Part shown: positions 1-50,285 of the stretch, piece after piece
Layout of the letters: each line of letters starts with the position of its first letter
Numbering within the stretch: position 1 is the first letter of the stretch
Assembly (NCBI GenBank): GCA_965231005.1
Contig: OZ246405.1
Location: forward strand, 103,204 to 167,203
Source: an uncultured Gammaproteobacteria bacterium
Lineage (GTDB): Bacteria; Patescibacteriota; Patescibacteriia; Magasanikbacterales; UBA922
Direction: 5' to 3'
DNA length: 64,000 bases
Notes under the pieces: generated by a model
The model's input: only the letters and a program-made list of their open reading frames with translations
Told to the model about the DNA's origin: nothing
The model's database searches: none
Position numbers and translations under genes: made by a program

Positions 1-207
1 CAACCAAATAGTAAGTCCCAACTATGCTCTGCCCTATTAGGACTGCAATCAATATTGGATTTATAGAAAGTCCAAGCCAGTACAATGCCAAGAGCGTAAT
101 CCATGTGGCGCTCACACTTAGACATAGCACACAAAATTTCATTTTTGTAATCTGCTTTATACCAAGAAGAATCAAAAAAGATATTGTAATGCTAATGAAT
201 ATAATAA

Positions 208-732
208 TCATAATCCAAATTCAATGATTAGCGCAGCAGCAGAAAGAAGAAGAAATGTAATTGCTATCCCCTGATAAGGGATCATCTTTCCTTTTCTTTT
301 TTCTTTTATCCATGAACTCATATATGGAGAAGCTACTAAGATTACAGCTCCAATAATACTCCCTACGAAAAATCTATTTACAAGATACACATTGTGCAAA
401 ATCGATCCGTATTCGCCATAGATTCCTACATACACAGAGCCTGCGTCTGTCATTAGAGAAATAAGCGGAATAACTGTTGTAACAAAGGAGATGATGGCAA
501 TAAGGAGATCTTGATGCGGAATATATTTCTTCTTTATGAGTCGTGCAATCCACAAACCCATTGCAACAGAAAATGCACCAACAAATATCCCAATACTTGT
601 TTGACCAATACCAAGCCAAGCAGCCCCCACTGCTGCAGCACCAGCACCTGCTGTACAAAGTGGACAGTGTGCAAATGCTGCAGCTGGGAAAAGGAGAAGC
701 AATGGCATGATTATTGTGTATATTTTTTTCAT
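208..732 (-). CDS. Polytopic membrane protein with N-terminal HCPLC (CxxC) motif; possible metal-handling membrane protein
   Basis: 174-aa ORF, signal/TM segments, AHCPLCTAGAG motif. First gene of a cluster with DUF411, DsbA-like and Met/His-rich proteins. Confidence 0.45.
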   Translation of the reverse strand: MKKIYTIIMPLLLLFPAAAFAHCPLCTAGAGAAAVGAAWLGIGQTSIGIFVGAFSVAMGLWIARLIKKKYIPHQDLLIAIISFVTTVIPLISLMTDAGSVYVGIYGEYGSILHNVYLVNRFFVGSIIGAVILVASPYMSSWIKEKRKGKMIPYQGIAITFLLLSAAALIIEFGL

Positions 733-734
733 AC

Positions 735-1211
735 CTATAATTTCATGAATTCAGTTTTGTTTCCTTCTGCGTCCATTCCAAAGATATGAAACTCTTCTGT
801 TTTTCTGCCTGGCATTCCTGGAGATCCAGACGGCATTCCTGGCATAGCAATACTAGCAAGGCCACTGTCGTCATTAACAAATGCTTCTACTGCTTCTAGT
901 GGAATATGTCCTTCTACAACTTTGTCTCCAAATACAGATGTGTGACAACTTTGTAATTCCAGAGGGATATTGTACTTGTCTTTTATACTGTTCATGTCAT
1001 GTGTTTCAACAATTTCAACATCATATCCTGCACGTTTTAGATAACTCGCATAGTTTCCACAACAACCACATGTTGGTGATTTGTATACTGTTACAGTTTT
1101 AGCCGAGACGATTTCTGTTGGTTTTACTATTTTTTGTTCTGGAGAATAGACAAGCATAATTCCCACAACAACAAAAACTCCAACAAAAAACCAAATAATA
1201 TTTTTAGTCAT
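735..1211 (-). CDS. DUF411 (CopG-like) metal-binding protein with CGCC motif
   Basis: 158 aa, N-terminal TM anchor, SPTCGCCGNY motif typical of DUF411 proteins found in copper-resistance loci. Confidence 0.55.
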   Translation of the reverse strand: MTKNIIWFFVGVFVVVGIMLVYSPEQKIVKPTEIVSAKTVTVYKSPTCGCCGNYASYLKRAGYDVEIVETHDMNSIKDKYNIPLELQSCHTSVFGDKVVEGHIPLEAVEAFVNDDSGLASIAMPGMPSGSPGMPGRKTEEFHIFGMDAEGNKTEFMKL

Positions 1212-1220
1212 AATGAATAG

Positions 1221-1982
1221 TTATGATTGAAGGAATGCATCAATAACAGTTTTTACCTGCTCATATGGCTGAGCACCGTTAATAGGTATTTTTTCATCTC
1301 CTGCAATAAGGATTGAATATGGTGTGCCACGAAGCCCCGCAGTTTCAGCATCACGTAATTGATCCATTACCTTTTGTTTGTGTTTACCAGAATCAAGACA
1401 GGTTTCAAACTTTTTTCTGTTCAATCCTGCGTACTCTGCAATTTCCGGAAACTGTAACGCAGCAAGTCCATCATTGGACGGCGTTATCTCGAATAAACGA
1501 TCCGCATACTTCCAAAATCCTTTGTTCCCACCCAATTCTCCAGCACATTCAAGTGCTTCTGCTTCTTTTACTGCCTTTCTATGAAGCGATGTAAGTGGTG
1601 CATGACGATAAACCCATTTTACTTTGTCACCATACTCATCAATGATTTGATTCATAGTATTGTGAAATCGTTTACAGAATGGGCATTCAGTGTCAGAAAA
1701 TTCTACAATAGTAATGTCTGCATTTTTGCCTCCTTTATACCAATCTTTATCAGTGACTTCTGCAAGAGTAATCTTTCCAGATCCCTGTGGCACTGGAACT
1801 GTTGGTTGTGCAGCTGTTCCAGAATCCTTTACAACATTTCCAGAGGATGTATTTCCAGAAAGAAAAAAACCAAGAAGGATAAAAAATCCAATAGTACAAA
1901 GAACAAGTATTCCACCTACTACTCCACTTAAAAAAGCTTTTTTCGTAGATGCTTCATCTCCTTTTTTTATGTGTTGATCCAT
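1221..1982 (-). CDS. DsbA-like thioredoxin-fold thiol:disulfide oxidoreductase (membrane anchored)
   Basis: 253 aa, N-terminal TM anchor, CPFC active-site motif (VEFSDTECPFCKRFH). Confidence 0.7.
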   Translation of the reverse strand: MDQHIKKGDEASTKKAFLSGVVGGILVLCTIGFFILLGFFLSGNTSSGNVVKDSGTAAQPTVPVPQGSGKITLAEVTDKDWYKGGKNADITIVEFSDTECPFCKRFHNTMNQIIDEYGDKVKWVYRHAPLTSLHRKAVKEAEALECAGELGGNKGFWKYADRLFEITPSNDGLAALQFPEIAEYAGLNRKKFETCLDSGKHKQKVMDQLRDAETAGLRGTPYSILIAGDEKIPINGAQPYEQVKTVIDAFLQS

Positions 1983-2053
1983 AACAAAAATTTATGTAAA
2001 TAAAAAATTCTACTGCTTGTTTGCAAAATACAAATAAAGCCAGTAGAACATTT

Positions 2054-2488
2054 TTACCAAATTTTTGGATGGAGAATTCCTGTTCTAAATAATGATATCA
2101 AAAATATATTGCACTTCCATATTTCCCTTTTTAACCTCAGGTATGCCGAAGATATGGAAAATGAATATAGATTGTTAAGGTAAAAAATCGCAACAGCAAA
2201 AAATGAAACAAAGAAAAATAGAGAATGCACTTGCTCAGTTGGCAAAACAAAAAGAGGAAGTTCATGTTCTGCAGAAAACGCACCTTGCTCCACACTGCAG
2301 CAAGGCATAGTATGATTCATGTGCCCACTATCCATGTCATTCATTGTTGCAAACATCATACCAAAAGAACCACCTCTGCAAAAAAAGAGTGTTGCTGCTA
2401 ATAATAGAATTGTTATAAGTCGAAAGTATGTTTTTGACATAAAACTAATAATCAAAATTATATTAGCACAACTTCTGCCCAATAACAA
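2054..2488 (-). CDS. Met/His/Cys-rich small membrane protein (putative copper-binding); likely true start at MSKTYF about 2440
   Basis: Segment MMFATMNDMDSGHMNHTMPCC resembles Met/His-rich Cu-binding motifs. TM segments on both sides. Confidence 0.4.
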   Translation of the reverse strand: MLLGRSCANIILIISFMSKTYFRLITILLLAATLFFCRGGSFGMMFATMNDMDSGHMNHTMPCCSVEQGAFSAEHELPLFVLPTEQVHSLFFFVSFFAVAIFYLNNLYSFSISSAYLRLKREIWKCNIFLISLFRTGILHPKIW

Positions 2489-2547
2489 ACCTCCCGGCCT
2501 AAAGGCCGGGAGAGTTTTAAACTGTACTTAAAGTATTGTAGAATCCC

Positions 2548-3564
2548 TTACCACCGACTACACACTGTTTTCATAAGTGCAGAACATACTTTGTACGGAT
2601 CCATGTTTGCTGCTGGACGACGATCTTCTAAGTATCCTTTTCCATCATTTGCAGTTGTCATTGGGATACGGATTGATGCTCCTCTGTCGCTAACTCCATA
2701 ACGAAATTCATGAATGCTGCATGTTTCATGAAGTCCTGTAAGACGTTCATGATTATCTGAACCATATACAGTAATATGATCTTGATGTCGTGCACGCAAT
2801 TTTTCACAAGCCTGATTAATCACTTCAATACCACCGTCTGAGCGCATTGCTTTTGTGGAAAAATTAGTGTGTGCGCCAGCACCATTCCAATCACCTTTTA
2901 CTGGTTTTGGATCAAGTGTTGCAATGACTCCATATTCTTCTGCAATCCTATAAAGAAGCCAACGTGCTAACCAAATCTGATCTGACACAGCAAGTGGACC
3001 AAGTGGACCAATTTGAAATTCCCATTGTGCAGGCATGACTTCTGCATTGATTCCTGAAATTGATAAACCTGCTTTCATACATGCATCCATGTGTTCTTCA
3101 ACAATGTCACGACCAAACACTTCATCTGCTCCTACACCACAATAGTATCCACCTTGTGGTGCTGGAAAACCATTTTTTGGCCAACCAAGAGGTCTTGATC
3201 CTTTAAAAAAAGTATATTCTTGTTCAATTCCAAACCATGCTTCTTCATCTTTGTACATGTTTGCAATTTCTGCAAGCTCTGCACGTGTGTTGCTTTCATG
3301 AACACTTCCATCTGCATTTAAAACTTCACACATGACAATGATGTCATCTTCTCCACGAATTGGATCTGGAATAAAGTATACAGGCTTTAACATGCAATCA
3401 CTTGATTCTCCTGTTGCTTGTTCTGTACTTGATCCATCAAACCCCCAATCTGGCAAATCCTCCAAACGTTGAATTCTACTATCTAAAATTTTTGTTTTGG
3501 AACGCAGCTTTGCTGTTGGTTTTTGCCCATCGATCCAAATGTACTCTGCTCTAATCTTTGACAT
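2548..3564 (-). CDS. glnII: Glutamine synthetase, type II (eukaryote-like GSII)
   Basis: 338 aa, N-terminus AEYIWIDGQ..LRSKTK matches the GSII family; length fits GSII, not GSI. Confidence 0.85.
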   Translation of the reverse strand: MSKIRAEYIWIDGQKPTAKLRSKTKILDSRIQRLEDLPDWGFDGSSTEQATGESSDCMLKPVYFIPDPIRGEDDIIVMCEVLNADGSVHESNTRAELAEIANMYKDEEAWFGIEQEYTFFKGSRPLGWPKNGFPAPQGGYYCGVGADEVFGRDIVEEHMDACMKAGLSISGINAEVMPAQWEFQIGPLGPLAVSDQIWLARWLLYRIAEEYGVIATLDPKPVKGDWNGAGAHTNFSTKAMRSDGGIEVINQACEKLRARHQDHITVYGSDNHERLTGLHETCSIHEFRYGVSDRGASIRIPMTTANDGKGYLEDRRPAANMDPYKVCSALMKTVCSRW

Positions 3565-3745: not shown

Positions 3746-4696
3746 ATGAAGCCGACACTTTTTGAAGAACTTCTTGCGCTCGGACGATTTCTGGAAGGCG
3801 AGCTTGGCAAGATCCCAAAGGTCCTGCTGATGACTGGCTCTGGCGAGAACGCAATCGGAGAAGCACTCGAAGGTCCGGAGAGCCTGAGATTCCAAGACAT
3901 ACCTGCCATGCAACGCATTCTGGAGGGCAAGCCCCCTCCCAAAGGGCATGGAAGGCGCCTTTTGAAGGGCAAACTTGGAGGAGAAGAAATTGTCGTTTCG
4001 CAAGGGCGATTGCACGGCTACGGTGGATTCAAAGGTCCTGAGATTGTGCTGCTTCAGCAAGCACTCATGCTCATGGGCGTGGAAATCATCTGCCTCAGCA
4101 ATGCTGCAGGTGGTGCAAGTCATCAGTACAAGAAGGGAGATCTGGCCCTGATCCAAGATCTGTGCCTGCTCTTTTGCAACAATCCACTCACAGGTGGAAA
4201 CGACAAACGACTTGGACCGCGAAATCCTCCTGTCGCACCCATGTTCTCCCCGAACCTGAGAGCATATGTTCATCGAATGGCTAAGCAGGCTGGAATTAAT
4301 CTGTCTCCTCACGAAGCAGATTACTTTCCAACATTCGGTCCCCAGTACGACACCCCCATGGATGTAAGGCTCGCAAACGGATGCGGTGCAACAGCAATCG
4401 GGATGTCGACTGTGCCAGCTGCAATTGCTGCTGCACACATGGGAGTACTCCGAATCGGATTCACCAAGATCACGAACATGTGCCCTGGTTACGAACCCAA
4501 GGGTCAGAACGACGAAGACAAGGAACTCGACCACAGTGGCGTGACTGACACCGGAGAAAGGATCACCGAAGAAAAACTCCTCCCGCTTCTCATCGCCATC
4601 CTTCCTGGACTGGTCGAAGCAGCTGGAAACGAGCTGATGATTCCTCGGTCACGACCCTACGCACGACTTCGCGCAGAAGGCTTCCCTGGCTACTAG
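3746..4696 (+). CDS. Purine nucleoside phosphorylase (PNP/MTAP family), encoded in a GC-rich island
   Basis: Motifs LLMTGSGEN, GRLHGYGGF and SNAAGG. Strong RBS AAGGAGGACACT before the ATG. GC content far above the flanks. Confidence 0.7.
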   Translation: MKPTLFEELLALGRFLEGELGKIPKVLLMTGSGENAIGEALEGPESLRFQDIPAMQRILEGKPPPKGHGRRLLKGKLGGEEIVVSQGRLHGYGGFKGPEIVLLQQALMLMGVEIICLSNAAGGASHQYKKGDLALIQDLCLLFCNNPLTGGNDKRLGPRNPPVAPMFSPNLRAYVHRMAKQAGINLSPHEADYFPTFGPQYDTPMDVRLANGCGATAIGMSTVPAAIAAAHMGVLRIGFTKITNMCPGYEPKGQNDEDKELDHSGVTDTGERITEEKLLPLLIAILPGLVEAAGNELMIPRSRPYARLRAEGFPGY

Positions 4697-4727
4697 TTCT
4701 TTTTGGAGACAACCGAACTTACGTTTC

Positions 4728-4765
4728 GAGGCGTACTACACTGTGGTACGCCTCTTTCTTTTTTA
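4728..4765 (+). terminator. Rho-independent terminator after the PNP gene
   Basis: GAGGCGTAC..GTACGCCTC stem followed by a T-run. Confidence 0.7.
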
Positions 4766-5119
4766 AACAATTAACAACTAACAATTAACAATTACCAACT
4801 TAGTATAGAAGATTTTTCGTCGAAAAGTATATTTTATATTATCTAATATCTACTATTTAATATCTAGTATTTTTAGTATAGGTTGCTCTCAACGTACAAA
4901 ACTTCTTTATATATTGCATGCGTTTATTCAATTTATCATCCATCCGGAATACAGATTCTATATATTAGATAATAGATAGTAGATATTAAAACTGTCCATA
5001 TTCTTTAAGAATTTTTCTATGCTAGTTTGTTAGTTGCTAATTGTTAATTGCTAATTTCTTTTTGTGAATATATAATTGAACTAAGCCGATCCCTCGGCAC
5101 ATATCATTAATATAATCAT

Positions 5120-5212
5120 ATGGAATGCACATATTGTGGCGCGCCAGTTGAAGAATTTGCGTGCTATGACTGTGAAGCCTGCGAAGGATGTGGATGCATG
5201 TGTGATAAGTAA
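5120..5212 (+). CDS. 30-aa cysteine-rich peptide MECTYCGAPVEEFACYDCEACEGCGCMCDK (8 Cys); apparently leaderless
   Basis: In-frame ATG..TAA. TATAAT sits 4 nt before the ATG with no SD sequence. Its own hairpin terminator follows directly. Below the size cutoff of the ORF track. Confidence 0.4.
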   Translation: MECTYCGAPVEEFACYDCEACEGCGCMCDK

Positions 5213-5235
5213 TCCATGCAGGAACTCTGTATACC

Positions 5236-5268
5236 AAAACAAGCCCGGATAAGGCTTGTTTTGTTTTT
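5236..5268. terminator. Bidirectional rho-independent terminator (Cys-peptide gene / convergent hrpA)
   Basis: AACAAGCC cggata AGGCTTGTT hairpin with an A-run before and a T-run after. Confidence 0.65.
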
Positions 5269-5326
5269 AAAAAAAATGACAGTAGAGCCAATAAAAGTCT
5301 CTTAAATTTTTTTGCCTTTTTGCCTT

Positions 5327-8300
5327 TTAAGAAAGATGTTCTGCAATCAAATCTTCTGCAGCCATTCTAATTTCATCTGCCGACAATGTCTTATCTTTTG
5401 AAATTTTTATTAATTCTGCCTGAATAGCCTTCAATCCATCGTCTGTTAATTCCCCTTCCCATTCTTTTTCCACAACAGGAACAACTGCCTTTACAATCTG
5501 ATCATATACATCATACCATCGTGTACGGACATTTCCTTCTACAAGTGCTGCTTCTCGTGCACTCCGTTTTGCATCGTTCATAACAGCATCTACTAAACCA
5601 CGAAGTCTATCAATTGCAATGCCTTCATGATCTTCTCTAATCCGTGCCACTCGTCGCGAAACATCTTTCACACGTTTTTTTGCTTTTGCTAAATTTTTTG
5701 CACCACGAATATCATGATTTCCTGCAGGCTCAGTTTCCCGAGTTGCTTGGACAAGAGCCAAAGCAAGATCTAATTGTTTTAATAATGTAGTCCTTTGGTC
5801 TTCTGACTCGTCCTCTCTACGTATTCCTTCTGAAAAAAGCATATTAGAAAGTCTTTCTGCAGTTGGATCCATTGACTTTCCACCTCGTCTCCCTTCTCCT
5901 TGTACTTCATACATGATTGTAGGGTCAATTCCTTTAGCCATAGCAACCTTTGTATCAAGACGTGTTTTTGTCGCAATAGACTCATTTGTATTTTCTTCAG
6001 CTTCTTCCTGTGTACGAAAATATCGAAAAGAAAATTCTGGATTATCACTGTGTCTACCCCATCCTTGTATCCCAAGATAAGCATATATAGGCTGGCCATC
6101 AAACCTATTTCCAATTTCGACCTTCTTTTTTAAACCATGTTCTTGTGCAGTTGGCAATGGTCGCAGTTGCCGTGAAGCAATATTCCTGGGTTGCCCTTCT
6201 TGAGTTTTATAAAAATCCCAAAATTTCTCATCAGTATCCCTACGAACAAATTCATGATAAAGCGAAACAATTGTTCGTCTATCTGAAACATGAAACGGAG
6301 AATCAACAACAGATACCTCTACGATTAATCCATCACGTGCACGACCTAGTCTAGGCATTTCTGCAGGTCCAACTTTATAAATATCTTTTGCAGAAATTTT
6401 TATTTTTGCCTCAAATTTTTCTGGCTCAGTCCGTGAATACAATCTGACCGATCTATACTCTGGCTTATATGAATATTCCACTTCAACATCAACCCCATTC
6501 ATCTGTATTGTTGTTGGATAATATTCATTAAGATCTTCCAATTGTTCAACTTCAATGAGATCTCCTTCTTCTAAAAAGAAATCATCTTGTCTTTCTTCTA
6601 AAGCTGCCTTGGTATGAATATTTCCATGTTCACGTAACTTTCTTTCATACCACCCTGCCATGTCAAAATTCACAGAACTAATTCTTCCTTTTGATCGAGC
6701 ATAATACTGATCTACTCTCTTAATCATTGCCCCATTAATTCTTGTTACTCTTGTATCAACACTCCCTTGAGCCAAAGCTTTTGCAAATCCCTCAACCGCT
6801 AATTCAACATTTCGTATCGGTTCTTTTTTTTCTCCTGGCAAATTTTCACCTGCTCCTCTCACTCGAAATTTTACTGCATTATACACTGAATCAGTTTTTG
6901 GATCATATTTTAATTCTGTTGACTGGCGTTCTAATATGTGCGGCATGACTGCAATCATTTGTTCAGCATTTACTGGATGAATCCCGTGTGCATAATTTCT
7001 TTTTACCTCCATACCTCGTTGTTTTCCACTTCCTTCTGTAATGTGAGAGGTAATTGCAAACAATGGTTTTTTTTCAAAGGCCACAGAACCAGGAGAAGGG
7101 ACGATCGCTTTATACCCTCTTCCATTACTTTCAACCATAGAATATTCAGGTAATCCAAAACCACTATGCACTAAATACATAAGCTGATCTGCATGTGCAG
7201 AAAGAATAACAGCACCCAAGTCATCTGCGCCTGTGCTCATGAGTGTATCTTGATACGTATCCAAATCAATCTTTACTCCAGCATATTTTGCAAAATCTTT
7301 TAACCTGCGCGCAATATTTTTTAAAGTTTTTGCATTTATATAATTTGCTCGACACCATTTTTCTAACTTTTTATTTGCAGCACGACCTTCATTTCCATTT
7401 CTATGAACTGCAGTAAATAATCCTTCATCAACAGCTTTAACAAGAACTGAAATATTTCTTAACCAGTCAGAATCCCCAAGATTAAATTTAGACTGAATCT
7501 CTTTTACTCTTGCACGTGCACTTGCTCTTTTTTCTCTATTATCAAAACCAAACGCCTCATCAACATCTTTTCGTGAAGGACCCATGAACACATTCCCAAA
7601 TTGATTAAACGCAGCAAGAGCAATTGTTGCATCAATACACCCACGTTTTTTTCCTTCTACAATCATTCTTGCAATTCGTGGTTCAAAACCAAGATCTTTC
7701 ATTTCCATTCCAACATCAGTCAATGCTTCTTTTTCATCAAGTGCACCAAGAATTTGTAATTCCTTTATGCCCTGTCTTACAGCATTTGGATCTGGAGCAT
7801 CTATAAAAGGAAAAGTTTTTGGATCTAAGCCATATGATTTCAATCTCAATACAACCTGCGATAAATTTGATTGATGAATTTCAGAATCTGGATGTTGTTT
7901 CAATGCTTCAAATCTCTTTTCTGGAATAAGCCTATAACAATGTCCTTCTTGAACACGACCAGCTCTTCCAGCACGCTGCTCTGCCTGATCTTTTGAAATA
8001 AATCCTGTTCCCATTTCTGTAATTCCTGTGTCTGGATTAAATTTCACAGATCGTTCCCGACATGAATCAACAACAGCAGTAATACCAGGAACCGTTAACG
8101 ATGTTTCAGCAATATTTGTACATACGATGATGCGACGCTGTATTCCTGCTGGTTTCTTTCCTCTTATCACATCTTGTCTATCATCTTCTGGCAACCCTCC
8201 GTAAAGAGGCAATACTTCTAAACCAATATCTTCAAACTTTTGTCCTCTCTGAAGAATCAAATCTTCTAGATGACCAATCGTATCCATAATCTCTCTGCGG

Positions 8301-9148
8301 CCAGGCATAAATACAAGAACATCTCCTTTTGTTTCCACCACCGCACCTCCAGCCTTTTGAGCTGCAAGTTTTGTATATGGTATTTCTCTTCCTTCATGAG
8401 ATAACTCGTTTTGATCTACAAATTCTTTTTCAACTGGGTATGTTCGTCCTTCAATTTTTTCATGATCTTCATCATCAATACCGTAATAGTCTTGATATTT
8501 TTTCTTATCAAGTGTTGCTGTGGTAAGTAAAATGAGTGGTGCATTGTCTTCTTCATGCAACATTTTTAAAAGACCAAGAACAACATGATAATCAATAGAT
8601 GCTTCATGTAACTCATCAATAATAACTGCTCCAACTTTTTCCTTATCAATGCGGCCACTTGCAAGATATTGGAGCATAACTCCAGATGTCACAACAGATG
8701 TATGTGTATCACCAGAAAATCCTTTTCGCTCAGATGTTGAATATCCAACACCACGACCCAAATCTTCTTCTGAAACAGCTGCAACGGCATTTGCAATTCC
8801 TGTTGCAGCGTCCTTACGCGGCTGCATCATAACAATTTTGTCTGGTAATCCAAGTTCTTGCAAAGCCTCTCGCATTGCAACAGGAGAATATACAGATTTT
8901 CCAGAACCAGTTTCTCCTTCTAAAAGAGAAATGCCTTTTCTTTTTGCACTTTCAGTAATAAGAGATTTCAATTCTTTAAATCTTGTTCGAACTGGCAGAT
9001 CTTGAGACTCAATAAGTCGTTTTAATTCAGCCAAACGCCGTCGCATGCTTTCTACACCACTATCAGGACGTCCTCTGTCACCACGACGAGGATCAGACCC
9101 ATATCTGTCACTATTTTTTCTCCGTTTTCCACCATTTCCGTATGCCAT
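5327..9148 (-). CDS. hrpA: ATP-dependent RNA helicase HrpA (DEAH-box family) with long C-terminal region
   Basis: 1273 aa. GETGSGKS Walker A, DELHE, TNIAETSLTVPGI and QRAGRAGR motifs, HA2/OB-like downstream region. Confidence 0.85.
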   Translation of the reverse strand: MAYGNGGKRRKNSDRYGSDPRRGDRGRPDSGVESMRRRLAELKRLIESQDLPVRTRFKELKSLITESAKRKGISLLEGETGSGKSVYSPVAMREALQELGLPDKIVMMQPRKDAATGIANAVAAVSEEDLGRGVGYSTSERKGFSGDTHTSVVTSGVMLQYLASGRIDKEKVGAVIIDELHEASIDYHVVLGLLKMLHEEDNAPLILLTTATLDKKKYQDYYGIDDEDHEKIEGRTYPVEKEFVDQNELSHEGREIPYTKLAAQKAGGAVVETKGDVLVFMPGRREIMDTIGHLEDLILQRGQKFEDIGLEVLPLYGGLPEDDRQDVIRGKKPAGIQRRIIVCTNIAETSLTVPGITAVVDSCRERSVKFNPDTGITEMGTGFISKDQAEQRAGRAGRVQEGHCYRLIPEKRFEALKQHPDSEIHQSNLSQVVLRLKSYGLDPKTFPFIDAPDPNAVRQGIKELQILGALDEKEALTDVGMEMKDLGFEPRIARMIVEGKKRGCIDATIALAAFNQFGNVFMGPSRKDVDEAFGFDNREKRASARARVKEIQSKFNLGDSDWLRNISVLVKAVDEGLFTAVHRNGNEGRAANKKLEKWCRANYINAKTLKNIARRLKDFAKYAGVKIDLDTYQDTLMSTGADDLGAVILSAHADQLMYLVHSGFGLPEYSMVESNGRGYKAIVPSPGSVAFEKKPLFAITSHITEGSGKQRGMEVKRNYAHGIHPVNAEQMIAVMPHILERQSTELKYDPKTDSVYNAVKFRVRGAGENLPGEKKEPIRNVELAVEGFAKALAQGSVDTRVTRINGAMIKRVDQYYARSKGRISSVNFDMAGWYERKLREHGNIHTKAALEERQDDFFLEEGDLIEVEQLEDLNEYYPTTIQMNGVDVEVEYSYKPEYRSVRLYSRTEPEKFEAKIKISAKDIYKVGPAEMPRLGRARDGLIVEVSVVDSPFHVSDRRTIVSLYHEFVRRDTDEKFWDFYKTQEGQPRNIASRQLRPLPTAQEHGLKKKVEIGNRFDGQPIYAYLGIQGWGRHSDNPEFSFRYFRTQEEAEENTNESIATKTRLDTKVAMAKGIDPTIMYEVQGEGRRGGKSMDPTAERLSNMLFSEGIRREDESEDQRTTLLKQLDLALALVQATRETEPAGNHDIRGAKNLAKAKKRVKDVSRRVARIREDHEGIAIDRLRGLVDAVMNDAKRSAREAALVEGNVRTRWYDVYDQIVKAVVPVVEKEWEGELTDDGLKAIQAELIKISKDKTLSADEIRMAAEDLIAEHLS

Positions 9149-9755: not shown

Positions 9756-9820
9756 AAAAAACAATTAACAAATAACAAACTATGTAGGACTTGTTTTTTG
9801 TTAATTATTATTTGTTTTTT
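9756..9820. repeat. AT-rich inverted repeat built of AACAATTAACAA units (intergenic hairpin/terminator)
   Basis: AAAAAACAATTAACAAATAACAAAC ... GTTTTTTGTTAATTATTATTTGTTTTTT around a 12-bp centre. Confidence 0.6.
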
Positions 9821-12192
9821 AACACTGGATGCTGTCCAAACCGCCCTCTAAGAGCAGAAACTATCTTCCCAGCATAACTAGGACGTTTTTGAGAATATAA
9901 TCTAAATTTAAATGCCTCATGAATGACTTTATCTCGGATACCCAGTTCATGTGCTGTCTTCACTGTCCATTCGCCTTCACCAGAATGATGAACCTTTCCA
10001 CTAATTGCTTTTAAATCCTCACCATACAGTTCAAATGCTTCACGCAGCCATGTAATAAGATGAGATTCAATAACACTTCCATTGTCATACACATCTGCAA
10101 CACGAGAAAGATCAAGTCTGAACTTTGCTTTTTTCATAATATGGAATCCTTCTCCAATTGCCTGCATCATGCCATATTCAATTCCATTGTGAACCATTTT
10201 TACAAAATGCCCTGCACCAACACCTTCAAAAAATTCATACCCATTTGTTTGTGACATGTCAAAAAATAATGGTTCAACTTTTTTAAATGTTTCCTTATCT
10301 CCACCAATCATAACGCATGCACCATTCCTTGCACCACCTGGACCGCCAGAAACTCCTGCATCAAGAAAATGAATGCCATGTTTTTTTAATTTCTTTTGTC
10401 GTGCAATAGTATTTTTGTAGAATGAATTTCCTCCATCAATAATAATATCTCCTTTGTCCATATGCTGAACAATACCTTCTGCACCAAAAAGCACATCATC
10501 AACTGGCTTTCCAGCCGGAATCATAAGCCAAATAAGACGTGGAGTAGATAACTTAAATACAAGTTCTTCGAGTGAGTAAGCTGGTTTCATTCCCTCACTC
10601 TTTAATTTATCTGTTTCATCTGGAGAACGATTGTATCCAACAACTTTCCATCCTTTTTCCATAATATGTCGTGCAATTCCGCCACCCATTCGACCAAGAC
10701 CAACAATACCAATTTCTTTTTTGATTTTTCCTTTTGGATGGGAAAGAAATTTTGCTGCTTTTTCACTAATTGTATGTGTATTTTTTTTGTATGAATGAAG
10801 TGGAACGAGTCTTTTTTTCCATGCTTTTTCAATTGGATCTACAAACCGCCACATTGCTGCAACTTCTTCCTTTCCAACAAACCATGTTTGGTCTCCACCA
10901 ATGCAATCATTAATAAGTTTTGCATATTCTTCTGTGTACTGACGTTTTTCTTTTTTCTTATATAGCATGAAATCCAAATTTCGCTTTTCCATTGCAAGTT
11001 CAAACCCAGGTTTTTTTGCAATAAATTCAACACGAATTCCTTCGTCTGGATGCAGTGAAAAAACAACTTTATTTTTTGTATGTTTGTCTGCAGGACAAAT
11101 GCATGGAGACGGATGTTTAAATGTGACAACAATTTCCTTATGTGCTTTCCCCATTCTTTTTCCACTTTCAATAGTAATAGGAACACCACTCCAACGTGGA
11201 TTGTCAATTTCTGTTTTTACTGCAAAAAACGTTTCAACTGTTGACGTTGGATTCACACCTTTTATCTTTGTATATCCTTTGTACTGTGCACGAAAACTCT
11301 GTACTGATGCTTCAGCCAGTGTTGGTTTGTGAAGCTGTTTTAATAATATTGTTCGCGCTCTTCGAATACTTGCAGCATCTGTTGTTTTTGGAAAATCCAT
11401 GGTCAAAAGTGCGACCATTTCTAACATATGATTCTGTCCAACATCACGAAGTGCACCAACTGTTTCATAAAATGGTCCTCTATCTTCTGCACCTATGTCT
11501 TCCCAAAGCTTCATATCAATGCGCTCTATGCTTTTGTTATTCCATGCATGTTCAAGAAGATTATTTGAAAAACGAAAATTCATGATTCCTTGAACCATTT
11601 CTTTTCCAAGATAATGATCAATTCGATAAATTTGCTCTTGCTTAAAACTTGCAAGTGTTTGCTCTAGCTGACGAGCAGTTTTTCCATCACTGCCAAATGG
11701 TTTTTCTACAATAAGGCGCGCCCACCCTTCGTCTCCACCGCACGGATCTGATAATTTTGAACGACGTAAATTCGATGCAATTGGTGTAATAAATTTTGGT
11801 GCAACAGCAAGATAAAAAATTTTATTTGAACATGTTTTCCATTCATTATCAACTTTTCCAAAATGTTTTGCGAGCTTAATGTAAGATCTATATTCTGTAA
11901 ACGATCCCTTTTGAAAATGAAACATGGATAAAAATTTTTCTGCACTTTTTCTGGAAGAAGTAATCTTTTTTTCTTTTAAAATGCTAAAAATGTGATCACG
12001 AAAATCATTATCATCAAATTTGTGATGTGAAAATCCAAGAACACGAAAAAGTTTAGGTAATCTTTTTTGTTTATATAAAAAATGAAGTGATGGAACAACT
12101 TTTTTCGTCATTAAATCTCCAGTTGCACCAAATACAACAAAAACAGTTGGCAAATTGTTGACAGGCATTTTCATAAAATTTTTTTGTACCAA
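9808..12192 (-). CDS. Fused glucose-6-phosphate 1-dehydrogenase (N-terminal) / 6-phosphogluconate dehydrogenase-like (C-terminal NAD-binding Gnd-type domain)
   Basis: 794 aa. G6PD signatures RIDHYLGKE and EKPFG. C-terminal roughly 300 aa carry GIVGLGRMGGG Rossmann and AGHFVKMVHNGIEYG 6PGDH motifs. Confidence 0.8.
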   Translation of the reverse strand: MVQKNFMKMPVNNLPTVFVVFGATGDLMTKKVVPSLHFLYKQKRLPKLFRVLGFSHHKFDDNDFRDHIFSILKEKKITSSRKSAEKFLSMFHFQKGSFTEYRSYIKLAKHFGKVDNEWKTCSNKIFYLAVAPKFITPIASNLRRSKLSDPCGGDEGWARLIVEKPFGSDGKTARQLEQTLASFKQEQIYRIDHYLGKEMVQGIMNFRFSNNLLEHAWNNKSIERIDMKLWEDIGAEDRGPFYETVGALRDVGQNHMLEMVALLTMDFPKTTDAASIRRARTILLKQLHKPTLAEASVQSFRAQYKGYTKIKGVNPTSTVETFFAVKTEIDNPRWSGVPITIESGKRMGKAHKEIVVTFKHPSPCICPADKHTKNKVVFSLHPDEGIRVEFIAKKPGFELAMEKRNLDFMLYKKKEKRQYTEEYAKLINDCIGGDQTWFVGKEEVAAMWRFVDPIEKAWKKRLVPLHSYKKNTHTISEKAAKFLSHPKGKIKKEIGIVGLGRMGGGIARHIMEKGWKVVGYNRSPDETDKLKSEGMKPAYSLEELVFKLSTPRLIWLMIPAGKPVDDVLFGAEGIVQHMDKGDIIIDGGNSFYKNTIARQKKLKKHGIHFLDAGVSGGPGGARNGACVMIGGDKETFKKVEPLFFDMSQTNGYEFFEGVGAGHFVKMVHNGIEYGMMQAIGEGFHIMKKAKFRLDLSRVADVYDNGSVIESHLITWLREAFELYGEDLKAISGKVHHSGEGEWTVKTAHELGIRDKVIHEAFKFRLYSQKRPSYAGKIVSALRGRFGQHPVLKNK

Positions 12193-12279: not shown

Positions 12280-12468
12280 ATGAGTAAGGTCAGCAATGCG
12301 ATGAAGCAAAATCGCAAACGAAGACGCAACGGATATTGGATTTGTAGCACTGAACATTGGTTTCCAAGGCTGCGAGAACGCAGAAAGTGTGGACAGGTCA
12401 ATCATCCCGGAACTTCTCACTGCTACTACTGTGGTTCGAGAAAACCCAGATCCCAACGGAGGAAGTGA
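12280..12468 (+). CDS. Tiny basic zinc-ribbon protein A (62 aa; YWIC-x14-CG-x8-HCYYCG)
   Basis: RBS GGAGGTGGCC then ATG. C4 pattern. Stop TGA overlaps the next ATG (TGATG). Confidence 0.5.
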   Translation: MSKVSNAMKQNRKRRRNGYWICSTEHWFPRLRERRKCGQVNHPGTSHCYYCGSRKPRSQRRK

Positions 12469-12692
12469 TGACGAAGAAAAAACGCCCTGGTCGCACTGTC
12501 AGAAAACGCGGGCGCAAGCCTGTCCGAACCAAGCCAGATGGTGGCAAGCTGCCCTGGGGTCGAAGTACTCCGCAGGAACGCCGACTCAACCGTCTGATCA
12601 AAAGAGGGGTCGTGAAAAAGCCCGAACCCCTCAAAAAGCGGGTCCAAAGGCGAACGCATCTTCGCGTCGTCCGAGATGGAGACCGCTGGTGA
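12468..12692 (+). CDS. Extremely basic (Arg/Lys-rich) 74-aa protein B, translationally coupled to A
   Basis: ATG overlaps the stop of A by 1 nt. About 40% K/R content. Confidence 0.45.
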   Translation: MTKKKRPGRTVRKRGRKPVRTKPDGGKLPWGRSTPQERRLNRLIKRGVVKKPEPLKKRVQRRTHLRVVRDGDRW

Positions 12693-12729
12693 AAAAAACG
12701 AGGGTTGTGCCTCGTATTGGGAGAAGCCG

Positions 12730-12954
12730 ATGAAAACCAACGAACGACTGATCCGCGCAACCCGCGGAGTCATTGCTGCAACTCGCAGAGGTCCACGCCC
12801 GAAGGTGAAGGGAAAGTCCAAGACGATTCCCTACTGGGTTTGCGAAAAATTCCGCAAGGAAGAAGACACTGAGCCGTGCGGTGCGCACAACTCCATGAAC
12901 GACAAGCGCTGTGTGACCTGTGGCAAAAAGCGCCCAAAGAGAAAGAAAAAGTGA
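12730..12954 (+). CDS. Tiny basic zinc-ribbon protein C (74 aa; YWVC-x11-CG-x8-CVTCG)
   Basis: GGGAGAAG RBS 5 nt before the ATG. Same zinc-ribbon module as A. An alternative upstream ATG lies at 12676. Confidence 0.5.
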   Translation: MKTNERLIRATRGVIAATRRGPRPKVKGKSKTIPYWVCEKFRKEEDTEPCGAHNSMNDKRCVTCGKKRPKRKKK

Positions 12955-13124
12955 GCGAGCATCCAGTTGAAAAAAACGTCAACAAAGACGCTGAAGTTGG
13001 ACTCGCTTCTGATGACGAAGCATACTGGATTTGCTCTGCAAAAATCGACGATGTAGTCTGCTGCCACTGCAACTACGACAGTGATGAGCATTGTATCCGG
13101 TGTGGCGGACCAAAAGCGAACTAG
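12951..13124 (+). CDS. Small zinc-ribbon protein D (57 aa, acidic N-terminus; YWIC-x8-CCHC-x7-CIRCG); GTG start overlapping stop of C
   Basis: GTGA start/stop overlap. Third copy of the YW[IV]C zinc-ribbon module. Confidence 0.4.
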   Translation: MSEHPVEKNVNKDAEVGLASDDEAYWICSAKIDDVVCCHCNYDSDEHCIRCGGPKAN

Positions 13125-13149
13125 TCAGAACAATTCAATAAGGAGTTAG

Positions 13150-14491: not shown

Positions 14492-14623
14492 ATTTAAAAA
14501 ATAAAGAAATTAGGAAATTAGGAAACTAAGGGAACAAAGTAAAAAGACCCTATCCTTTTATAACTTTTGGTATCAATTTAAAGCCCCTTATTTCTTAATT
14601 TCTTTATTTCGCTATTTCTTTTT
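14492..14623. repeat. Intergenic inverted repeat AAATAAAGAAATTAGGAAATTAGGAAAC / TATTTCTTAATTTCTTTATTTCG
   Basis: Roughly 28-bp arms flanking a 60-bp spacer, between two minus-strand genes. Confidence 0.55.
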
Positions 14624-19357: not shown

Positions 19358-19569
19358 GACTTCCTCCTTATGGAAGTTGAAAAATTTTGGCAAAACCAAA
19401 ACCCTCTCTTTCGAGAGGGGGTTATGTTGATGAATAGTAAAAAAATATCAAGACAACTCACTCTCGAAAGAGAAAGTTGTTACGACGAAAATTATATTGT
19501 GAATATATCGCATTTATCATATATATTTACCCTAGCATGATTACCTATATACGTCAATACTAAATAAGA

Positions 19570-49328: not shown

Positions 49329-50150
49329 ATGCAGATTAAAAAAATAATTATTCTCTCTCTTGCACTCATACTTGTTGGTGCAGGATGTTCGGATACACCA
49401 GAAGAACCAACAAAGGTGGTTGTACAACCAATAAAAAAAGAGATAGTGAAAAAACCAGAATCCTCGCCACCAATTGAAAAAGCATATCAATTTTGTAAAT
49501 CTCAAGGATACAATATTGTTATGCATTATGACACAATCGCAAAAAAGAATGTTATTAGCTGTGTCTTTTCAAATAATACACAATGTGAAGCAGTACATTA
49601 TCTAAAAGGAATGTGTGGGCCAGATGCTGGTGCGCGTATTGCTACAGGACCAATAGACAATAACCTCACTGCTTTGAGGTATTGCGATAGAACCAGCCCT
49701 CCAGTCTGTGGTGCAGATGGACACAATTATTCAAATCACTGCGTAGCAGCACAGCAGAATGTAAAAATTCTGCATGAAGGACTTTGTACAGAAAGTGAGC
49801 AGGCAAACCCACTGACCACACAATCGCCTACAGCAGCAATTCCAAACACATCAAACAATGGTAGTGTTGTTCCTCAAAACGAACAGCAAACAAAAGAACC
49901 AGCTCCATGGCTAAGTACACTGTTTGATTTGATTCAATCTCAGCAACCACTTAATCCTCGGACATTTGTAGAACGGTGCAACTATGCTGGTGAGACCTAT
50001 TATCACTATGTTGAAGGCTGTAAAAACTGTTTCAGTATTCTCTATAATTACGATAGCACCATAGCATGTTTCCCAAATAATGATATAAATATCTCCTGTC
50101 CAGGAAACTTTAAAGGAAACTGTACAAGAATCTGGAGAGATAATCGGTAA
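49329..50150 (+). CDS. Lipoprotein with Kazal-type inhibitor-like cysteine domain(s)
   Basis: Lipobox LVGAGC. CDRTSPPVCGADGHNYSNHCVAAQQNVKILHEGLC matches the Kazal pattern C..PVCG.DG..Y.N.C...C. Confidence 0.5.
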   Translation: MQIKKIIILSLALILVGAGCSDTPEEPTKVVVQPIKKEIVKKPESSPPIEKAYQFCKSQGYNIVMHYDTIAKKNVISCVFSNNTQCEAVHYLKGMCGPDAGARIATGPIDNNLTALRYCDRTSPPVCGADGHNYSNHCVAAQQNVKILHEGLCTESEQANPLTTQSPTAAIPNTSNNGSVVPQNEQQTKEPAPWLSTLFDLIQSQQPLNPRTFVERCNYAGETYYHYVEGCKNCFSILYNYDSTIACFPNNDINISCPGNFKGNCTRIWRDNR

Positions 50151-50285
50151 ATGCTGTAAATGCCTTAAAAGCCAAAAAGGCTTTAAAGGCTGAAAGAACC
50201 CTATACATCGATAAGGAGTCTCTCAATGAAAATGCAAAGAGCCTTTAAAGCTTTTACGGCATTTATGGCCTTTTGGGCATTTTAG
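50145..50285. repeat. Copy 3 of the GCCTTTAAAGGC palindromic repeat family (two inverted half-arrays) abutting the rplA promoter
   Basis: GCCTTAAAAGCCAAAAAGGCTTTAAAGGC ... GCCTTTAAAGCTTTTACGGCATTTATGGCCTTTTGGGCA. Confidence 0.7.

Follow-up and report, generated by a model that had tools for sequence, protein, structure and literature searches.

Does the intergenic DNA between two convergent genes of an uncultured patescibacterium conceal a functional gene of only thirty codons, and, if so, what might its product do? The question is raised by a stretch of 64,000 nucleotides (nt) from contig OZ246405.1 of assembly GCA_965231005.1 (positions 103,204 to 167,203 of the forward strand; hereafter the window), in which a 630-bp AT-rich interval separates a PNP_UDP_1 gene (3746-4696, + strand) from a convergent DEAH/HA2 helicase gene (5327-9148, – strand). 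An earlier note on this DNA had pointed to an open reading frame (ORF) for an eight-cysteine peptide within the interval. Comparison with four related sequences indicates that this frame, at 5120-5212, is very probably a real, translated gene. The overall reading we favour, and regard as likely, is that it encodes a cytoplasmic Cys8 metalloprotein with metal-binding knuckles of the rubredoxin/zinc-ribbon type.

The peptide gene and its relatives

The ORF and its translation proved to be exactly as first claimed:

5120-5212, + strand: peptide coding sequence (CDS), ATG at 5120 to TAA at 5210-5212, 30 residues, MECTYCGAPVEEFACYDCEACEGCGCMCDK

Its eight Cys residues (27%) stand at positions 3, 6, 15, 18, 21, 24, 26 and 28, forming three CxxC motifs plus CxCxC, and give it the top Cys content among the 1038 ORFs of at least 20 residues in the window. 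The peptide is acidic and hydrophilic, whereas the other Cys-rich frames of the window are Leu/Phe/Cys-rich junk from T-rich DNA. Two further remarks of the earlier note were borne out: the CDS exceeds its surroundings in G+C content (46% vs. 38% for the window), and the gene has been overlooked by annotation, the peptide being uncalled on every copy of the source contig. To gauge how often Cys-rich ORFs arise by chance, the window was simulated with a second-order Markov model. Among 400 simulated windows, 2 had an ORF in which 8 Cys or more made up 25% or more of the residues (1 of 400 when an ATG start was demanded), and the looser cut-off of at least 6 Cys was reached by chance in 7%. Because of these rates, composition is only suggestive and no proof of a gene in a 1.2-Mb genome; it is conservation that settles the question.

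Protein-level searches returned no relatives. An exact-sequence look-up found none of the five family peptides described below in a collection of 15 billion proteins. A phmmer search with the window peptide against 1.84 billion cluster representatives gave 0 matches, although the power of such a search is low for a Cys-rich query of 30 residues, and gene callers seldom report peptides of this kind. A 59-residue concatenate of two family members had no 5-mer word in common with any protein searched. Pfam, NCBIfam and PDB yielded no significant match for the family peptides, Rfam held nothing at gathering thresholds and only noise at E-values up to 1, and the literature on cysteine-rich proteins, small proteins or metallothioneins of the Candidate Phyla Radiation (CPR) offered nothing relevant. 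The source contig, 1.23 Mb long, belongs to an ENA metagenome (ERZ930065/ERR2281800). The genes of the window are bacterial (RNase J, GyrB, PrfA, GatB and RodA are encoded), and the helicase reaches 43% identity with its closest homologue overall and 41% with the closest named one (Candidatus Magasanikbacteria, Parcubacteria, i.e. Patescibacteria/CPR). A helicase-based search of GTDB genomes for related loci gave nothing. With no close relative of the source organism in the collections, a simple comparison of orthologous loci was therefore impossible.

Relatives were sought at the DNA level by means of a degenerate pattern in which the eight Cys codons and the distances between them were set. 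Applied to GTDB genomes without further constraint, the pattern matched an overwhelming excess of (TGC)n/(TGT)n repeats. With Cys excluded at the intervening codons and applied to Joint Genome Institute (JGI) metagenomes, it matched exactly one contig (L123); this single match is a lower bound, since the 'not-T first base' constraints would miss three of the four relatives owing to their Ser TCN and Tyr codons. An improved pattern recovers all five family members. The ORF on L123 opens with an ATG that precedes the first Cys by two codons, reaches its stop one codon past the final Cys, and is followed by a strong hairpin terminator with a convergent uvrC beyond; the ATG/stop register, the terminator and the convergent gene were not demanded by the search pattern. 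A synteny walk over the contigs of uvrC homologues with 57-67% identity produced three further distinct versions, at or near the same position by uvrC; the homologues that led to them share 62-67% identity. Neither a pattern scan of viral contigs (0 matches) nor tblastn and blastn searches of phages and plasmids revealed anything meaningful. The relatives are:

L123, 170-259: 29-residue ORF, MFCAQCEMDVAELACDTCQACTDCGCVCE (constrained pattern, JGI metagenomes)
L125: peptide MICSQCDMEASDLACDTCESCTDCGCVC (uvrC synteny walk)
L128/L129 (GCA_030689965.1): peptide MTCSQCYMEVAELACDTCESCGDCGCVCS (uvrC synteny walk)
L134: peptide MICSNCGAEVEELVCDECHACEECGCTCED (uvrC synteny walk), nearest to the window peptide, 57% identity

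All five sequences, 28-30 residues long, fit the pattern M-x-C-x2-C-x8-C-x2-C-x2-C-x2-C-G-C-x-C-x(0-2). M1, C3, C6, C15, C18, C21, C24, G25, C26 and C28 are invariant in the alignment, substitution is conservative at positions 10, 12, 13, 14 and 27 (V/A10, F/L13, A/V14, M/V/T27), and in every member the ATG stands two codons before C3 and the stop zero to two codons after C28. At the DNA level, third-position differences (11-18) exceed second-position differences (1-9) in all ten pairs, with counts at the first, second and third codon positions spanning 4/3/11 to 11/9/18. The ratio of nonsynonymous to synonymous substitution rates (Nei-Gojobori dN/dS) is 0.08-0.09 among L123, L125 and L128, where synonymous sites are near saturation (dS 1.4-2.2); the corresponding ratio of uncorrected proportions (pN/pS) is 0.18-0.46 over all pairs and, for non-Cys codons only, 0.3-0.4 for close pairs. 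TGC and TGT are exchanged at seven of the eight Cys positions, while Cys itself never changes; judged by this substitution pattern, the strongest constraint falls on the Cys framework. The check proposed in the earlier note, namely conservation and coding-type substitution in related genomes, was thus carried out and came out in favour of the gene, with five members and third-position-biased change.

Two genes common to the neighbourhoods of the relatives and the window, PNP_UDP_1 and a G6PD-6PGD fusion (62% identical), support the relatedness of these organisms to that of the window. To judge from the alignment, the peptides make up an unannotated family of strongly acidic eight-Cys mini-proteins in Magasanikbacteria-like Patescibacteria; it has so far been seen only in such CPR bacteria, at least four besides the window organism. 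Tiny Cys-rich metal-binding proteins are known as a kind, but the present family, with its distinctive Cys8 pattern and no detectable homologues, was previously undescribed.

The same data bear on the idea that the frame encodes no protein, being instead a chance frame inside a small RNA or the Cys-codon leader peptide of an attenuator. This idea could draw on the terminator directly 3' of the ORF, as is found with attenuator leader peptides, on the folding of 5078-5285, which is better than that of shuffles (z = -3.4), on a weak, sub-threshold Rfam match (BSR0602, 20 bits vs. a gathering score of 191), and on the occurrence of chance Cys-rich ORFs in 0.5-7% of simulated windows. We nevertheless consider it extremely improbable: frame, start and stop are kept in five organisms, change is dominated by third positions with TGC/TGT alternation, and RNAalifold detected no covariation-supported structure in the CDS (covariation term +1.2, a penalty). 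Attenuation is disfavoured in that nothing downstream is left to regulate: past the terminator, each of the five loci continues with a convergent gene. An 84-residue ORF antisense to the gene (5037-5291) was rejected, as it is not conserved and only 36-41 residues long in L123.

Predicted promoter, leader and terminator

The following elements flank the CDS:

5048-5076, + strand: best predicted sigma-70-type promoter, TTGCTA (5048-5053), 17 nt, TATAAT (5071-5076), 10 of 12 matches
5085-5098, + strand: small hairpin GCCGA-tccc-TCGGC, which folds and starts 8-9 nt after the –10 box
5108-5116, + strand: TAATATAAT, adjoining the ATG, with TAATAT at -12 to -7; an alternative promoter, not conserved across the family
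5235-5276: predicted terminator, 11-bp stem CAAAACAAGCC/GGCTTGTTTTG (5235-5263), T-run 5264-5268, A-run 5269-5276

The peptide gene would form a unit of its own, started from TTGCTA-17-TATAAT near position 5083, the –10 box (5071-5076) of which lies 43 nt upstream of the ATG. Its transcript of ~185 nt would carry a leader of ~37 nt that opens with the small hairpin, and would end at the hairpin 5235-5263. Hairpins occupy the same position in L134 and L125 as in the window, beginning 7-9 nt past the –10 box, and in the mRNA the window hairpin would probably give a 5'-terminal stem-loop. In four relatives, an extended –10 box, TGATATA[AC]T, is found 28-51 nt upstream of the ATG, preceded in all four by ATAT[AC]CACAG at a distance of 30-31 nt. 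This latter motif has no other occurrence in the scanned loci of the relatives; the pair ATAT[AC]CACAG-N30/31-TGATATA[AC]T is a candidate binding site of a dedicated regulator. It is located as follows:

L123: 95-143
L125: 5019-4970, – strand
L128: 11441-11393, – strand
L134: 5529-5480, – strand

The earlier note had inferred a leaderless mRNA from a TATAAT close to the ATG and the lack of a Shine-Dalgarno (SD) sequence. The TATAAT is present (5111-5116), though 3 nt rather than 4 nt before the ATG. A transcript starting at the A of the ATG and driven by the TAATATAAT box would find further backing in the TAATAT at -12 to -7 of the window and a perfect TATAAT at the same distance in L128. L123, L125 and L134, however, have no acceptable –10 hexamer ending at the proper place, about 6-7 nt short of the A of the ATG, so that a suitably spaced box exists in only two of the five loci, and TATAAT-like strings arise by chance in AT-rich leaders. 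Nor does the missing SD site distinguish between the models: an SD-like motif lies within 20 nt of the start in only 6 of the 45 long ORFs of the window. The organism mostly initiates translation without an SD site, which renders its absence uninformative here, and translation of the peptide would begin in the same way. Set against the conserved upstream promoter of the relatives and the 10-of-12 promoter of the window, leaderless transcription appears unlikely, and the leadered ~185-nt transcript is the better-supported prediction.

A terminator of the gene's own had likewise been proposed, at 5236-5268. Hairpin and T-run are real; the stem is corrected to 5235-5263, while the end of the T-run at 5268 agrees. 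Its predicted folding energy is -19.7 kcal/mol, within a span of -13.5 to -20.6 kcal/mol over the five loci. In all five, the hairpin is flanked by an A-run and a T-run on opposite sides and is followed by a convergent gene, and the terminator is probably bidirectional, serving both the peptide gene and its convergent neighbour rather than the former exclusively. A short motif just after the stop codon, TCCAT(G/A)CA (window 5213-5220), occurs in both the window and L128 and recurs in L125 with a shift of 3 nt.

What the eight thiols might hold

Eight invariant thiols within 28 residues can hardly serve another purpose than metal binding, and we are reasonably confident that the peptide binds metal through its Cys residues. 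The family peptides have no signal peptide and no leader, which would place them in the cytoplasm. They also have no His and, except for K30 of the window copy, no basic residues, which makes nucleic acid binding unlikely. The peptide would fold around metal ions held by its eight thiolates, for which three CxxC knuckles and the terminal C-x-C would most simply provide two tetrathiolate M(Cys)4 sites for Zn(II) or Fe. Knuckles of the CxxCG type are C21-x2-C24-G25 in all five members and C3-x2-C6-G, which is confined to the window and L134; the knuckle Gly and the conservation of small hydrophobic positions would point to a defined mini-fold, not to a plastic thiolate cluster. As for its role, the product might, as a small acidic metalloprotein, carry electrons, sense metal or redox state, or store metal.

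That the architecture consists of two knuckle sites of the rubredoxin/zinc-ribbon type rather than a metallothionein-type cluster is a tentative preference on our part, a little short of evenly balanced. In line with it are the three aromatic residues and the acidic composition, which fit rubredoxin-like proteins, and the best, albeit weak, sub-threshold likeness in the databases, to rubredoxin/zinc-ribbon knuckles: the designed mini-rubredoxin METP matched with an E-value of 0.11, and Zn_Ribbon_1 matched L134 with an E-value of 0.023 and 14.9 bits (cut-off 25). Rubredoxin, desulforedoxin and zinc-ribbon proteins including METP, the sole (non-significant) database similarities, resemble the family in their CxxC(G) knuckles, acidity and small size. 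Proteins of the rubredoxin/zinc-ribbon type combine two CxxC knuckles, as a rule CxxCG, into one M(Cys)4 site; the window peptide has C3xxC6(G), C15xxC18 and C21xxC24-G25. Rubredoxin, on the other hand, is twice as long and has four Cys instead of eight, and in both rubredoxin and zinc ribbons the C-terminal CxxCGCxC block has no counterpart; the loop between the first two knuckles of the family is only 8 residues. A comparable case of a stand-alone micro-protein is HVO_2753, a 59-residue haloarchaeal zinc-finger protein with four C(P)XCG motifs. Like the family described here, such haloarchaeal proteins have fewer than 70 residues, consist almost entirely of CxxC knuckles, are monocistronic and were missed by annotation; HVO_2753 differs in its domain of life, its twofold length, its CPxCG motifs and its lower Cys density, and shows no detectable homology.

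Alternatively, the peptide could be a metallothionein-like buffer, i.e. a single-domain thionein with a polynuclear Cu(I) or Zn/Cd thiolate cluster, employed in detoxification or storage and possibly tied to the copper-handling genes (CsoR, CopA, DUF411, DsbA) on the source contig (L001):

735-1211: DUF411 gene (Pfam)
1221-1982: DsbA/thioredoxin-like gene (Pfam)
L001 3441-8237, left of the window and overlapping window 1-1982: copper-handling cluster of a CsoR-type repressor, an HMA/P-type ATPase (Cu-type), two unknown ORFs, DUF411 and the DsbA/thioredoxin-like gene

Known metallothioneins (Neurospora crassa Cu-MT, the mammalian beta-domain, SmtA/BmtA, MymT) are indeed similarly small and cytoplasmic, with ~27-30% Cys in CxxC/CxC, no disulfide-forming secretory context and folding expected only around metal. 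The family, at 28-30 residues and 27-29% Cys in CxxC/CxC, without His, falls within the usual bounds of small size and ~15-35% Cys (30 residues and 27% in the window copy). In size and Cys density it is also like the Neurospora copper thionein, which has 25 residues and 7 Cys. Two glutaredoxin-like genes that diverge from the L125 copy might likewise speak for a metal buffer. One point that tells against this rival is sequence character: a metallothionein should have few aromatic or hydrophobic residues and similarity to a known family, whereas the window copy contains Y5, F13 and Y16, the conserved hydrophobic/aromatic positions (such as F/L at 13) and the invariant Gly of the CxxCG knuckle are atypical, and no Pfam or NCBIfam metallothionein model is matched even at an E-value of 10. 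The family is, moreover, strongly acidic instead of Lys/Ser/Gly-rich, has none of the His ligands of SmtA/BmtA, and lacks an adjacent metal-sensing regulator conserved across its loci. The copper cluster, for its part, lies 3-8 kb away on the other strand with two unrelated genes between, and no copper or zinc resistance gene stands beside the gene in L123/124, L125, L128 or L134. The copper/thiol-redox genes to which the earlier note had drawn attention are real, but their link to the peptide gene is not reproduced in relatives, and the functional tie was dropped for want of any such association. Overall, we rate a metallothionein-like function as rather doubtful.

A third possibility, an iron-sulfur mini-ferredoxin, would use CxxCxxCxxC (C15 to C24) and one more Cys to ligate a [4Fe-4S] or [2Fe-2S] cluster, and would be the smallest natural carrier of the ferredoxin type. 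CxxCxxC forms the core of the motif by which clostridial ferredoxins bind their clusters, and synthetic peptides of 16 residues with this core assemble [4Fe-4S] clusters. Composition is acidic, as in ferredoxins, and redox genes (glutaredoxin-like genes, the G6PD-6PGD fusion) occur in the neighbourhood of the relatives. CxxCxxCxxC is, however, unlike the canonical CxxCxxCxxxCP and has no Pro after the last Cys, no Fer4 model is matched, and 28 residues would shield a cluster poorly; an iron-sulfur protein thus seems very unlikely.

The neighbours that recur around the relatives' copies are uvrC, a PAS histidine kinase accompanied by a receiver-only response regulator, and glutaredoxin-like genes; any pointer to a redox role that they offer is weak at best. 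A bolder extension of the favoured metalloprotein would make it a minimal natural redox protein: a double-rubredoxin or [Fe-S] carrier of 28-30 residues, the smallest known, replacing full-length rubredoxin, ferredoxin or thioredoxin-type carriers in genome-reduced CPR bacteria and controlled via ATATMCACAG. Although it would fit the placement in relatives near glutaredoxin-like genes, the G6PD-6PGD fusion, which generates reduced nicotinamide adenine dinucleotide phosphate, and the PAS sensor kinase, we regard this scenario as speculative and quite unlikely.

The earlier note had also listed a precursor of a ribosomally synthesized and post-translationally modified peptide (RiPP), that is, an exported substrate of a radical-SAM (S-adenosylmethionine) or other maturase, ranthipeptide/SCIFF-like or chalkophore-like. 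Short Cys-rich ORFs are typical RiPP cores, and the length is near that of methanobactin and SCIFF precursors; SCIFF/ranthipeptide and other Cys-rich RiPP precursors resemble the family in that their ORFs are short and carry a C-terminal block of at least six Cys. They differ in having a leader of at least 15-20 residues and an adjacent radical-SAM maturase. The Cys residues of the family begin at residue 3 and hence leave no room for a leader, no gene for a radical-SAM enzyme, YcaO, lanthipeptide synthetase, protease or exporter adjoins any of the five loci, and the gene would form a monocistronic unit that runs from its own promoter to its own terminator. This candidate is accordingly disfavoured, and we deem it highly improbable.

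Several points weigh against the metalloprotein gene as favoured here. Cys retention was a search criterion, both in the DNA pattern and in the regular expression, so that Cys conservation is partly imposed (register, length, G25, terminators and promoter motifs were not search criteria), and for non-Cys codons the distant pairs, near saturation, give a pN/pS of 0.6-1.1. In six other relatives (L126, L127, L130, L131-133, L135-138), the ±10 kb around uvrC contained no copy of the gene, nor was one present near the closest helicase homologue (L139); the family is therefore patchy, or its position variable or mobile within the genome. The window contains neither the ATATMCACAG motif nor the extended –10 box of the relatives. 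As to architecture, a Cys content of 27% over 30 residues would be just as fitting for a metallothionein, and a single-sequence AlphaFold model is of low confidence (predicted local distance difference test, pLDDT, 65), which leaves the two-site arrangement to motif reasoning alone.

The upstream palindrome, the wider window and what the gene may mean

Upstream of the promoter lies a second conspicuous element, the nested inverted repeats which the earlier note had placed in this interval and which are real, covering ~290 bp (4766-5056):

4766-4800: heptads of the left outer arm, five in tandem (AACAATT, AACAACT, AACAATT, AACAATT, ACCAACT)
4814-4826: near-palindrome TTTTCGTCGAAAA (TTTTCG-T-CGAAAA), 6+1+6, a hairpin in the fold
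4834-4875: left inner arm, units with 14-nt spacing (TAATATCTAsTATTT)
4950-4991: right inner arm, complementary to 4834-4875
5010-5056: right outer arm, with four to five heptads in inverted form (ARTTGYT) from 5024 onward, overlapping the –35 hexamer

The outer arms (4769-4815/5010-5056) pair over 47 nt with 79% complementarity, the inner arms (4834-4875/4950-4991) over 42 nt with 79%, including a 27-nt sub-repeat with 89%. The predicted folding energy of the 303-nt stretch is -68.1 kcal/mol, compared with -39.8 ± 4.1 for shuffled sequence (z = -6.9). TTTTCGTCGAAAA, previously described as a palindrome, is present at 4814-4826, albeit as a near-palindrome. Arrayed AACAAYT heptads make up the outer arms, and a double heptad has 7 matches in the window compared with 0.4 expected. 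None of the relatives has the palindrome upstream of the gene, so that this element does not belong to the conserved gene unit and was dropped as a part of the gene. Since the palindrome lies between a terminator and the promoter, with its right arm over the –35 hexamer, it more probably acts in DNA, as a protein-binding array or operator, than in RNA.

A miniature inverted-repeat transposable element (MITE) or a repetitive extragenic palindrome would be expected in many copies per genome, with terminal inverted repeats. No second copy of the palindrome exists within the window, and comparison with plasmids and phages gave no meaningful match. Two more intergenic inverted arrays of AACAATT/AATTAAC-like units of 7-8 nt were found (9749-9778/9791-9820 and 53588-53621/53654-53687), both just upstream of gene starts (9716, – strand; 53691, + strand), and the heptad arrays may represent a genome-wide class of elements resembling repetitive extragenic palindromes or operators. 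Other long intergenic inverted repeats, with differing sequences, lie at 50149-50282, 14499-14609 and 19400-19478 (arms of 24-43 nt, 79-92% complementary).

The immediate neighbours of the interval are as follows:

3746-4696, + strand: PNP_UDP_1 phosphorylase gene (Pfam PF01048, E-value 2e-25), outside the peptide unit
4728-4764, + strand: terminator-like hairpin (12 pairs, 7 of them G-C) with T-run, ending the PNP transcript (terminator scan, inverted repeat)
5327-9148, – strand: convergent helicase of 1273 residues, DEAD/Helicase_C/HA2 (DEAH/HA2; Pfam)

Owing to the terminator at 4728-4764, PNP transcription is unlikely to reach the peptide gene. The PNP_UDP_1 gene itself has 54% G+C and a strong, perfect AAGGAGG SD site, neither of which most genes in the genome have. 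The PNP genes of two relatives are also elevated in G+C (51% and 46%), yet merely 27-29% identical to that of the window, for which xenologous replacement or repeated transfer is possible.

Elsewhere in the window, a G+C-rich island at 12280-13125 (52-56% vs. 37% for the genome) holds three to four tandem ORFs for small basic proteins on the + strand, preceded by a strong SD site, ccGGAGGtggccATG. Three of these ORFs carry W-x-C...C-x3-N-x6-C-x2-C, with sub-threshold RanBP2-type zinc-ribbon matches (E-values 8e-4 to 0.14), and the island looks like a foreign insert encoding putative zinc-finger mini-proteins. The G6PD-6PGD fusion (794 residues; window 9808-12192, – strand; L131 14239-16650; L130 10724-11578; ~60% identity) adjoins glutaredoxin-like genes in relatives. 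A protein of 338 residues encoded at 2548-3564 (– strand) is glutamine-synthetase-like, with matches confined to the beta-grasp domain and part of the catalytic domain. On L139, a gene pair of the SAVED + SMODS type (1157-3187), resembling cyclic-oligonucleotide-based antiphage signalling systems, stands beside a Peptidase_S24 gene.

What, finally, would the peptide gene mean for its hosts? As genomes of CPR/Patescibacteria measure ~1 Mb, a gene under purifying selection is unlikely to be dispensable in them, and the family provides a concrete case of a conserved gene invisible to standard gene calling. The route to it, from a repeat-excluding scan for Cys-codon patterns through a synteny walk to codon-position statistics, is reusable for other micro-proteins. 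Interest in the family stems mainly from the length of the peptides, which permits direct biochemistry: if they bind metal as predicted, they would be among the shortest natural Cys8 scaffolds and small enough for chemical synthesis. They might then serve as a tractable model of minimal metal sites and possibly offer a handle on the metal and redox physiology of organisms not yet cultured alone.

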